64,000 nt of DNA, taken from Escherichia coli (lineage in GTDB: Bacteria; Pseudomonadota; Gammaproteobacteria; Enterobacterales; Enterobacteriaceae). The DNA lies in NCBI RefSeq assembly GCF_003334765.1, contig NZ_QOWT01000001.1. One strand, given 5' to 3'. The position numbers were made by a program. Position 1 is the first letter of the stretch. Each line of letters starts with the position of its first letter. This document shows positions 24,001-27,000 of the stretch, in pieces.

Positions 24001-27000
24001 ATAAGCCATTTCAATTGGTTAATTAATCTGCAAAGTTGTTAATTAATGAACATTCGTCGCCGAAAACGAGTCTGTATCATTAGCGTGATGCAGTCTCTGC
24101 AAAGGATCTTGTTGATAAAATTGGCAGAAACGTTGCCACAATGAAGGGAAACGAGGAGCAAAAAGTTCTGGGGCGCTAAAGAAATATTCAGAAAGTACGG
24201 CAAAACATTCAGCAGGATCACTGGCAGCATAAGCATCGATGCTCGCCGCATTCTCGCCAACCAATTCGATTTCTTCCTGAATGTTGTTCATTGCAGCATG
24301 AAGATCGTGTTCCCAGCCAGCAACCTCACGCAACGGAATAAAGGGAACTCCGCTGGCGCGATCGCCGTTACGGGTGTCCAGCTTATGAGCGACTTCATGA
24401 ATAATCAGGTTAAAACCAGAAGCATCAAAAGAATCTTGTATATCCAACCAGTTCAAAACGATAGGCCCTTGCTGCCAGCTCTGACCTGACTGAACAATAC
24501 GTTGGTTATGCACCAGACCGATATCGTCTTCCCATTCATCATCGACCACAAATGGCGCAGGATAAATTAAGACTTCATGAAAACCATCCAGCCATTCCAG
24601 TCCTAACTCCAGAACGGGCAGGCAAAATAGAAGTGCTATCCGGCAGCTTCTTAATGAATTCAGCTCAAAGCCCTGTAAAGGAACAAGCCGTTTTTGCTGT
24701 AAAAAACGTTCGGCAAGAGTGACTAATTTGCTTTGTTCCTGTTCCGTCAGACACGTTAAAAGGGGGATCGATAGTGCTTCCTGCCAGGGAAGGGCAGTTT
24801 GATGTGCTGATTCTTGTACTTTCCAGGGCCACTTAATCATCGTTTTGCTCGCAAACTCGTCACTTGAACAAAATTGCACGGACAGGGACTGTTAAAATGC
24901 CAAATTTCCTGGCATCATGGCAACCATCTGAACGGAGAGATGCCGGAGCGGCTGAACGGACCGGTCTCGAAAACCGGAGTAGGGGCAACTCTACCGGGGG
25001 TTCAAATCCCCCTCTCTCCGCCACTTTATCAATGACTTATCTCCCGACTTCCCGCCTTGCTTTTCCTAAACAGAACAATCGTAGAATATTCTTGAAGGGT
25101 TAGATCGTCACTGTTTTCTGTTCGATACTGTGACATTCAGCACTTGATTCGCTATGGATCTGACAGGAAGCTTTCGAGCGAAAATGTGCAGTTATTCAGT
25201 CGTTTTCTTATCGCTCACCATTATTCTTTTAGACATTCATCCTATGAAACTGCCGCAAAGTTGGTGGTGGGAACTGAAGTTGCGTAGAGAAGGGGTCAAT
25301 AATTGAGTCAAAAAAGGAACGCGGCCGTCAGATTAAAGCCGCGGGACAAAGTCCATAATTTCCAAGAGTTGTTGAATTTCCCAGCTTTTTTGAAAGCCTT
25401 TGTATCATACTAACAAGTAAAAAAGGTTTAAATACCAAAATTAACCTGTATTTTTGATAAGTCTTACCATTGTACGATTTACACAGTTTCTGCTCCTCCT
25501 TGTTGATAGTGGAAAGGGTGCATTGTGCACTTGCGTAAACATTTATGACGCGTTGATGTCCATGGTTCACATTTCCTTGTCAGGGGATCGACTTATTTGC
25601 GGCGAGGCATCATTCGTAACAGAGTATTATCTTTCTGAATGTAGTGATGAAAGAGTGCTGCGCCAGCGTGAGCTGCGATTAAAAAGTAACCTATATTTGC
25701 CCAGGTTTCGTGAATATTTTTTATCAGTGCTTTAATTTCGCTGTTTGGGGTAACAAAGGGAGACACATTGAAACCAAGGAAACTCCACGATTTTCCACTG
25801 TAAGCCATTAAAGCAATCCCCAGCAGAGGAAGTGCAAGGAAGGTTATATAAAGCATGATGTGCATTAGCGAAGCCGCTTTCATTTGCCAGGCAGGTGGCG
25901 GTGGTACAATAGAAGGATCACTATAACGGTGTTTTATAATCAGGCGTGAAAACATTAACACCCAAACGAATATACCCGCATTGTAATGTGTTTCTCGCAT
26001 CAGCAGATAAGTACTACTACCTTTAGGAAACCAGCCACGGAGTTCCATCGCGGCATAGGTTATTGCAACGAAAAGCAGCGTTATCCAATGTAAATAAATT
26101 TGAGTTTTTGAGAATCGGTTCATTTTTGTAGCTCCTGTAATTTTTACAGTCAAGCTATCCCACGAACCTTAAAAATTCCTTATACAGAAGTGGTTTTAAG
26201 AATTTGTTATTTAAAAAATTGATAGTGCACATTGTAACCAGCCAATATAAGCAATGGCGTGAGCACAGGTATCTTTCTCTGTTGGCCGTATTGTGTATGG
26301 AATCCGTTATTGGTTAACTCAATGCGGGTTAGCTTATTAATATACAGACACGTCATAGTGATGAGCGTGTCTGTAGCTAGCTTGCGTTCAGTGGCGTTTG
26401 TGGATGGACCAGTGGCAGTTATGATGACTTACTAAAGCGGCATCGAGGCGTTATCATGAGAATACTCAATGAGACATCATTTCCTCGACCACTTCTTCGC
26501 TACTCAACTGATATGGATAATACGTTGGCCAGTTTTCCATTTCATTTAATAAAGATTGCTGTGAATCATTACCCATAAAAATGTGAAAATGAGATGATTT
26601 TCGTGGTGCAATTATATGATCGCTAAATTGTATATATTTAGGGGCTTTGCTTTCAGGATCTTTACATTCGAATAAGTAACGAACGCCTTTCTTGCCTGAT
26701 TTATAGGTGAGTATTTTGTATCCATCGTAATCATATTTACAGGATGTTGTTTCATTATTTCTATGGAATTCAACAATGCCGTCCTCAATGCCAATCATCT
26801 CGATATCTGTCGCATAACCTTTGTGATAATAATCTTTAATTTCAGCAAATGTTTTAGTTTTATCTGCATCCGCTTTCTTCTGAAAGACGGGGTCAAGTTT
26901 GCCACTTTGCAGTAAAGGATAAACGGATTGCCAGACTCCATCCCAGTCACTCAGCTTTCGGTTTTGTACATTGGCATCATCAAAAACACCATTAGCAGCT

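Follow-up and report, generated by a model that had tools for sequence, protein, structure and literature searches.

Locus and sequence features

The DNA analysed here, called the window throughout, is a stretch of 64,000 nucleotides from Escherichia coli (RefSeq assembly GCF_003334765.1, contig NZ_QOWT01000001.1), and the subject of this study is the unannotated gap between its genes serU and yodB. The gene for tRNA-Ser(CGA), serU, was located at 24934-25023 on the plus strand using ARAGORN and Rfam and is intact. On the minus strand, yodB is an open reading frame (ORF) for a cytochrome b561 of 176 residues, which ends at 25593, matches NF008566 and is named yodB in E. coli records. The gap between these convergent genes spans 25024-25592 (569 bp). 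It is probably a non-coding spacer between convergent terminators at an empty, often used attachment (att) site, in which an att arm, a Rho-dependent stop and an intrinsic terminator are combined, and whose sequence is a mosaic of a serU flank, a fossil of a lambdoid phage module and the edge of a yodB cassette.

A preliminary description, made from the sequence alone, had presented the gap as an AT-rich, non-coding stretch of 570 bp beside a tRNA-Ser gene. Its AT-rich and non-coding character was borne out (GC content of 0.404, that is 40.4%, against 0.526 for the whole window, within the lowest 8% of 569-bp windows), but the length is 569 bp, and the AT-richness is regional and not specific to the gap, with GC contents of 0.416 for yodB, 0.386 for zinT and 0.39-0.40 for the yodB-zinT and zinT-msrQ spacers. 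Across the gap, the window is 99.5% identical to K-12 MG1655, with zero indels, and coordinates were converted as window x = MG1655 2,043,467-(x-25024), with strands flipped. The curated MG1655 RefSeq record has zero features annotated between yodB and serU, and in the sampled records only insertion sequences (IS) or prophage insertions were annotated under the gap match. Short repeats found within 24900-26500 look like chance matches. In the K-12 derivative NZ_CP012870, the locus tags skip from RS12615 (serU) to RS12625 (yodB), which points to a gene predicted here in a previous round of automatic annotation and later withdrawn.

The following segments were distinguished:

24934-25023, plus strand: serU, tRNA-Ser(CGA), located with ARAGORN and Rfam; its last 62 nt (24962-25023) and last 14 nt (25010-25023) are duplicated elsewhere
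25024-25157, plus strand: M1a, the serU-proximal flank; C-rich, G-poor, poorly structured and near-invariant in E. coli
25158-25301, plus strand: M1b, a polymorphic patch; holds the Rho peak at ~25266 and ends where phage-captured DNA ends
25302-25423, minus strand: M2; hairpins, the tail UUCCUUUUUU and an RNA 3' end at 25310; mostly absent from Escherichia albertii
25424-25470, minus strand: M3; common to E. albertii and all E. coli, the second block homologous with the phage module, with TTTAAA at 25432-25427
25471-25592, minus strand: M4, the proximal 3' untranslated stretch of yodB; part of the ~1-kb yodB cassette (~25471-26465)

The serU attachment site

Genes for tRNA-Ser had been put forward as common integration sites, and serU is indeed heavily used by prophages and islands in E. 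coli. In strain 113 (enterohaemorrhagic type) and in O157:H7, a tccP/espFu-espJ prophage ends with the last 62 nt of serU, and the gap follows immediately. The record of the LT-IIb prophage (SerU-LTIIb) ends likewise, with a 62-nt serU repeat at attR followed by gap sequence. The left junction of the O157 prophage consists of an intact serU with an integrase gene 27 nt off. In CFT073, the 22-kb PAI-serU, which encodes TcpC, lies between serU and the gap and is bounded by a 14-nt repeat only. The elements at this one tRNA gene accordingly comprise two classes with different repeat lengths, 62 nt and 14 nt. Integrative elements would recombine inside serU, either at the anticodon-loop end of the 62-nt segment or within the last 14 nt, and the gap would afterwards stand immediately behind the duplicated piece of tRNA.

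A search for a direct repeat of the serU 3' end in the 64-kb window returned a single match, the gene itself, with no second copy even when mismatches were allowed, and the ORF list contained no integrase adjoining serU. As both the second repeat copy and the neighbouring integrase are missing, the site is empty in the window, which agrees with the suggestion of an empty att site made previously. Judged by its sequence in occupied genomes, where it is the flank after the duplicated serU 3' end, the gap is the downstream arm of an unoccupied serU attachment site. The arrangement matches that of the known site, used by TccP/EspJ prophages of the CP-933U/Sp14 type, by LT-II prophages and by PAI-serU/TcpC of CFT073 and 536, where the tRNA gene stays intact, its 3' segment is duplicated distally and the gap is the following flank; in contrast to those occupied sites, the site of the window is empty.

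Occupancy was estimated by ranking 5428 matching records with a query consisting of the tRNA and 37 nt of flank. The intact serU junction was kept at 21 of 30 evenly spaced ranks, which is a rank sample and not a count, and roughly 70% of E. coli genomes are accordingly empty at serU and 30% occupied. The rank sample was used instead of the fraction of genomes with at least 80% coverage of the gap, which is confounded for occupancy since left junctions share the first ~16 nt of the flank. In individual strains, the gap is hit by IS1, IS3 and prophage-linked truncations.

At a distance of 1 kb from serU, asnT (23867-23942, minus strand) is occupied in the window by the yersiniabactin High-Pathogenicity Island (8629-23486), while serU is empty. 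The island includes an ORF for the salicylate synthase YbtS (20945-22249), with large ORFs upstream. Of an integrase profile of 413 residues, the island's integrase ORF (22443-23486) matches no more than positions 82-396, and it is probably truncated.

Termination of the converging transcripts

Published K-12 data by Adams et al. 2021 (PMC7815308) list a Rho region at MG1655 2043225 (-), which corresponds to window ~25266 (+). The reads upstream and downstream of this position amounted to 7705/24 without bicyclomycin and 9053/1099 with bicyclomycin, and the Rho score of 38.97 (p = 2e-241) is among the highest in the part of the table considered here (PMC7815308). These values correspond to a change of ~40-fold in read-through relative to the upstream signal. 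The C/G ratio is 1.67 over 25024-25103 and 1.5 over 25184-25263, and the folding of the first 137 nt is weaker than that of each of 200 shuffles (z = +2.39). A simple terminator scan of the serU strand found no hairpin followed by a U-run in the gap. In K-12, serU read-through is stopped by Rho within the first ~250 nt, at ~25266. The C-rich, unstructured stretch beside the tRNA is the likely Rho loading (rut) site, and the strong tRNA promoter would feed the read-through. In its bicyclomycin-sensitive read-through, C-rich unstructured RNA and lack of a hairpin with U-run, the site resembles the Rho terminators found after stable-RNA genes (PMC7815308); it differs from those that have been dissected in that it is a supplementary-table entry only, classed as 'orphan', with a putative rut site.

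On the opposite strand, folding revealed a hairpin at 25343-25320 with a 7-bp GC-rich stem, followed by the tail UUCCUUUUUU (25319-25310), which contains a run of six U, and a second, small hairpin beside it at 25354-25344. An 'orphan' Term-seq 3' end at MG1655 2043181 (+) corresponds to window 25310 (-), the last U of UUCCUUUUUU, and is listed for LB medium at an optical density (OD) of 2.0 and for M63 medium, but not for LB at OD 0.4 (PMC7815308). The hairpin and the U-run constitute an intrinsic terminator that ends a minus-strand RNA at 25310, where the 3' end has been mapped. The two transcript ends, ~25266 (+) and 25310 (-), lie 44 nt apart, so that the converging transcripts from serU and from the yodB side do not overlap. 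The probable source of the minus-strand RNA is yodB or, where a strain has no yodB, read-through from zinT.

The preliminary description had raised an unannotated small RNA (sRNA) in the gap. In favour of this idea, there are the 3' end at 25310 and conserved hairpins with some covariation, but the RNA may simply be the 3' untranslated region (UTR) of yodB. The preliminary description would have been refuted by conservation of the gap in genomes lacking any insertion together with the absence of a transcript; the gap does prove conserved where no element is inserted, but RNA ends have been mapped within it. With enterobacterial intrinsic terminators and 3'-UTR-derived sRNAs, the element has in common that its stem is GC-rich, that a U6 tail follows and that the 3' end maps to the last U; it departs from such sRNAs by a loop of 10 nt and the lack of an Rfam family, and its RNA is known only by the 3' end. 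Rfam returned no match over 25300-25470 or for the phage module described below, even at E <= 10. The literature on sRNAs near yodB or zinT yielded no paper linking an sRNA to yodB, and the supplement of Romero et al. contains no entry for yodB or serU.

A promoter-like site lies upstream on the minus strand, with TTTAAA (25432-25427), a 17-nt spacer and TATGAT (25409-25404). It is kept in the phage homologues and is of chance-level frequency in the scan. In the urinary isolate EC2, an IS1 with a 9-bp target duplication is inserted at window 25420-25428, between the -35-like and -10-like hexamers.

Conservation and phage capture of the 278-bp flank

Conservation is uneven within M1, the first 278 bp of the gap. 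M1a (25024-25157) is near-invariant, with at least 99% identity in 5176 of 5408 records; for M1b (25158-25301), this level was reached in only 2819 of 5220. Compared with a B2 genome, all 8 substitutions in M1 fall in 25158-25268, and some 25158-25301 alleles are common to E. coli chromosomes and phage copies. E. albertii is 84% identical in M1a, with indels further on.

The free phages ev099, mEp332 and PhiR70_1 carry 24962-25301, that is, 62 nt of serU and the 278-bp flank, with 97% identity. The same stretch is also present in ~30 IMG/VR contigs, and the phage copies stop at 25301. In phages of the ev099 type, the attP core and the C-terminus of Int are those of lambda and lie 2.1 kb from the M1 copy, and their lysogens adjoin ybhB-bioABFCD. 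To the left of the serU piece of ev099 lie 115 nt that match the P arm of the SerU-LTIIb right junction with 90% identity. The phage-borne piece is best described as a captured right junction of an old serU prophage, including 278 bp of host DNA. Such a capture explains the ~540 extra copies of M1 in E. coli genomes, which are not accompanied by extra copies of the remaining gap. It follows the logic of specialised transduction, as known for lambda gal/bio: if a serU prophage recombines beyond its right junction, a P arm, the serU core and the 278-bp flank are what one would expect. The difference from specialised transduction is that the captured piece is a fixed and widespread passenger of the b region in lambda-site phages, and not a rare defective particle.

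Within the b region, the neighbours of the captured piece are IS fragments and a regulator of the AraC family. A 340-bp repeat common to the bio region and the serU locus is thereby present in about 10% of E. coli genomes. An assignment of the 62 nt of serU plus 278 bp as the attP of ev099, mEp332 and PhiR70_1, with M1 as the P' arm, was considered and rejected on account of their lambda attP and Int and their lysogens at the bio locus.

Outside E. coli and E. albertii, the serU flank differs, and many genera, as well as the cryptic Escherichia clades, share another motif, followed by shiA-amn. A flank related to M1 was found in Kluyvera intermedia INSAq229 (contig positions 88-439; nhmmer E = 1e-55), where the contig ends 440 bp after serU; in other Kluyvera species and in most closer relatives of E. 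coli, the serU flanks are unrelated to M1. In the cryptic clades, of which E. whittamii is one, shiA and amn rather than zinT come after serU, and the flank resembles that of Citrobacter. The shiA-amn order fits an inversion of the serU-mtfA-asnT segment in E. coli/E. albertii, whose two end points would lie at the 3' ends of tRNAs.

The best-conserved block of M1, GTAGAATATTCTTG (window 25081-25094), shares GAATATTCTT with the motif GGAATATTCTTC upstream of the serU repeat at the SerU-LTIIb attR. The serU repeat or the tRNA end is accompanied by motifs of the form GGAATATT(C/T)T, of which the O157 attL flank has two, and the attR of SerU-LTIIb and that of strain 113 have one each, upstream of the repeat. 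They are possible integrase arm-type sites, which GTAGAATATTCTTG resembles.

Homology with a lambdoid phage module

The minus-strand terminator belongs to a larger segment, 25311-25472, which is collinear with a segment in the lambdoid phage vB_EcoS-683R6 and in the LT-IIb prophage. The homology comprises two blocks of 83-87% and 76-81% identity, whose order and orientation are kept. A pattern search retrieved 58 viral contigs, ~45 of which have the fixed order Q, tRNA-Thr, tRNA-Gly, module, 41-residue ORF (opposite strand), holin S and lysozyme R. When 11 distinct module sequences were aligned, they gave three hairpins with 16 pairs, which are 98.3% paired and include 4 compensatory pairs, and the covariation score exceeded all 500 shuffles and all slid controls; the sample of 11 is small and consists of related sequences, and the retrieval pattern fixed much of the terminator. 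The 41-residue ORF, which is oriented opposite to late transcription in the lambdoid phages, has no match in PHROGs or NCBIfam, and the module has none in Rfam.

In 5418 E. coli genomes, 25302-25447 occurs as a single copy with an identity of at least 95%. E. albertii is devoid of 25313-25423 (~110 bp), a segment flanked in E. coli by AAAAAAGG repeats, and is read as having lost this part of the module by deletion between the repeats. Because the phage context of the module is diverse and constant, and the chromosomal copy is a single divergent member, the latter appears to be a prophage fossil, namely 25302-25470 as a remnant of a lambdoid late-region module. In the phage, it would correspond to the end of a small unit in reverse orientation, comprising the 3' tail with the terminator and located between the tRNA genes and that for holin. 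Searches with PHROG and NCBIfam detected no phage gene fragments bounding M2-M3, and the repeat search gave no att repeats around it. Like the cryptic prophage remnants of E. coli, the segment is a short, collinear lambdoid late-region fragment beside a tRNA integration site; it is distinguished from them in that ~160 bp survive, with neither a coding remnant nor flanking att repeats, and are fixed in essentially all E. coli. The earlier proposal of a deletion scar is retained in modified form, with 25302-25470 as a lambdoid module fragment and 25447-25470 as the edge of the yodB replacement.

The yodB cassette

The gap is present at least partly in 5422 of 5426 complete E. coli genomes, and at least 80% of it in 3065 of the 5426. 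The lower-ranked matches that were sampled cover only gap positions 1-447, up to window 25470. One genome with such a short match was inspected: it has no yodB, and ~215 bp of unrelated spacer lead straight to zinT. The haplotypes with and without yodB diverge already from ~25448, and about 44% of E. coli genomes appear to lack the yodB cassette. E. albertii has the same yodB-less arrangement with an alignable spacer, and the ~1-kb yodB segment (~25471-26465) is therefore derived. The last 122 bp of the gap (25471-25592) would have arrived with this cassette. Independently, yodB has been used as a presence/absence marker in clones of sequence type 410, ST410 (PMC10786849).

The only alignable piece inside the replaced segment is a 37-bp hairpin downstream of zinT (26343-26375). 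The idea that yodB is a phage moron was discarded, as no phage homologues were found save the host flank in the SerU-LTIIb record. In the zinT-msrQ spacer (27309-27374), Rfam gave a sub-threshold match to naRNA4 (35.8 bits against a gathering threshold of 59.5), which is probably a palindromic element of the repetitive extragenic palindromic (REP) type.

Coding potential

Four ORFs were evaluated in the gap:

25328-25570, minus strand: 80-residue ORF, spurious; spans the haplotype breakpoint at 25470, no PHROG or NCBIfam match
25454-25735, plus strand: 93-residue ORF, spurious; runs antisense into yodB, spans the breakpoint, no family match
25154-25306, plus strand: 50-residue ORF, spurious; 0 synonymous and 8 non-synonymous changes against B2, in-frame stop in phage copies
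25144-25287, plus strand: 47-residue ORF, spurious; stop in B2 and phage copies, overlaps the 50-residue ORF

The 80- and 93-residue ORFs, which overlap each other, had been dismissed in the preliminary description, which saw no convincing ORF in the gap. We concur: both cross the haplotype breakpoint, and none of the gap ORFs matched PHROGs or NCBIfam. As it crosses 25470, the 80-residue ORF cannot be conserved in yodB-less genomes. The alternative raised at the same time, an unannotated small protein, is not supported, given the stops, the indels and the substitution pattern. That any of the four ORFs (47, 50, 80 or 93 residues) encodes a real small protein is extremely improbable: the ORFs exist, and that of 50 residues has a hydrophobic stretch and is open in the E. 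coli chromosomal haplotypes examined, but its 8 changes are all non-synonymous and phage copies interrupt it, the 47-residue ORF has a stop in the B2 haplotype, frame-breaking indels run across both in E. albertii, and the curated MG1655 record, which lists validated small proteins, is empty here.

Evaluation of alternative interpretations

The interpretation preferred here, of a non-coding spacer with an att arm and two convergent terminators, has to accommodate several observations that weigh against it. The Rho and Term-seq data come from K-12 and not from the strain of the window, though the two are 99.5% identical, and the Rho position is approximate, the scoring having used windows of 800 nt. 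A Rho loading site alone does not fully explain the near-invariance of 25024-25157. The loop of the minus-strand terminator is long (10 nt), the simple terminator scan, itself at chance level, missed the site, and folding energies on this strand are ordinary (z = -0.7 to -1.6). Promoter-like sites were found at chance level (2 against 2.7 expected), which makes the source of the RNA a candidate only. Over its whole length, M2-M3 matches the phage module at only ~70%, with no remnant of phage coding sequence. The search for an integrase 3' end or remnant in M1 gave no signal, which leaves unsupported the notion that M1, too, is phage debris.

A first competing view credits the gap with no function beyond separating genes, so that the RNA ends would be incidental and the conservation would reflect the low divergence of E. 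coli. The IS1, IS3 and prophage-linked truncations tolerated in individual strains, the loss of 110 bp of the gap in E. albertii and the unrelated flank outside Escherichia are consistent with it. However, the Rho effect is among the strongest of the published table entries considered (~40-fold), the minus-strand 3' end coincides with the last U behind a hairpin whose pairing is kept by compensatory change in phage homologues, and M1a is far more uniform than the adjacent 144 bp; on balance, we regard this view as unlikely. A better, though still minor, chance is given to the opposite proposal, in which 25397-25310 (-) is an independent sRNA gene of ~88 nt with its own sigma-70 promoter and hairpin terminator, inherited from a lambdoid phage and kept for regulation. 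The restriction of the 3' end to the lists for LB at OD 2.0 and M63 would fit regulated expression, and the TTTAAA and -10-like hexamers are kept with 17-nt spacing in host and phage copies. Moreover, the three-hairpin consensus is 98% paired, with covariation above every shuffle, and in yodB-less genomes, where zinT has its own terminator hairpin upstream, the module is still at least 95% conserved. Conversely, the promoter is only putative, with a count of promoter-like sites that is that of chance, neither an Rfam family nor a publication connects an sRNA with yodB, and the read counts are low (~2000 versus 600,000 for DsrA). The module is also lost in E. albertii, one clinical strain has an IS1 between the two promoter hexamers, and the covariation comes from 11 sequences that are related and whose retrieval pattern prescribed most of the terminator. 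Slightly more doubtful still is the extended form of this proposal, namely that ~25397-25310 (-) is a real, independent ~88-nt sRNA of phage ancestry, fixed in essentially all E. coli, and that the chromosomal copy is a domesticated member of an undescribed family of three-hairpin phage sRNAs.

As to origin, the whole of 25024-25470 could be a single lambdoid prophage that collapsed at serU before the split of E. coli and E. albertii, with M1 as its P' arm and M2-M3 as what was left between Q and S after two large deletions. A lambda-type prophage integrated at serU would be expected to have M1 and M2-M3 in exactly this order and orientation, most Enterobacteriaceae, including the cryptic Escherichia clades, have a different common serU flank, and an M1-like flank recurs in the distant K. 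intermedia. The similarity of GTAGAATATTCTTG to GGAATATTCTTC through GAATATTCTT and the GGAATATT motifs in the strain 113 attR and O157 attL flanks point in the same direction. Against this, in the sole phages in which M1 was found, it is captured host DNA and not their own attP, the serU prophage of O157 has int, and not M1, beside the core, no integrase remnant is detectable in M1, and the resemblance to arm sites is a single 10-mer that was noticed after the fact. We consider this origin possible but not favoured, and retain the composite of a serU flank of uncertain age, lambdoid fossil and cassette edge, arranged as a convergent-terminator spacer at the empty serU site.

Biological implications

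The kind of locus described here is well known and mostly ordinary. Not described so far are the fossil module, the presence of M1 in lambda-like phages as captured DNA and the existence of two att cores, and none of the findings in the gap overturns current understanding. The use of different cores within the single tRNA gene serU by two classes of elements is a detail that had not been described before. The 340 bp of homology between lambda-site prophages and the serU locus are a possible substrate for rearrangements. The conserved, phage-related hairpin module is flagged for RNA biology, where the choice is between an sRNA and a 3' UTR; if the former were true, the phage homologues, which would be transcribed against the late operon, might modulate the expression of late or lysis genes. 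Taken together, the analysis maps, function by function, a gap without annotation in the best-studied of all bacterial genomes, covering integration, the stop of serU transcription and the end of the opposing transcript.

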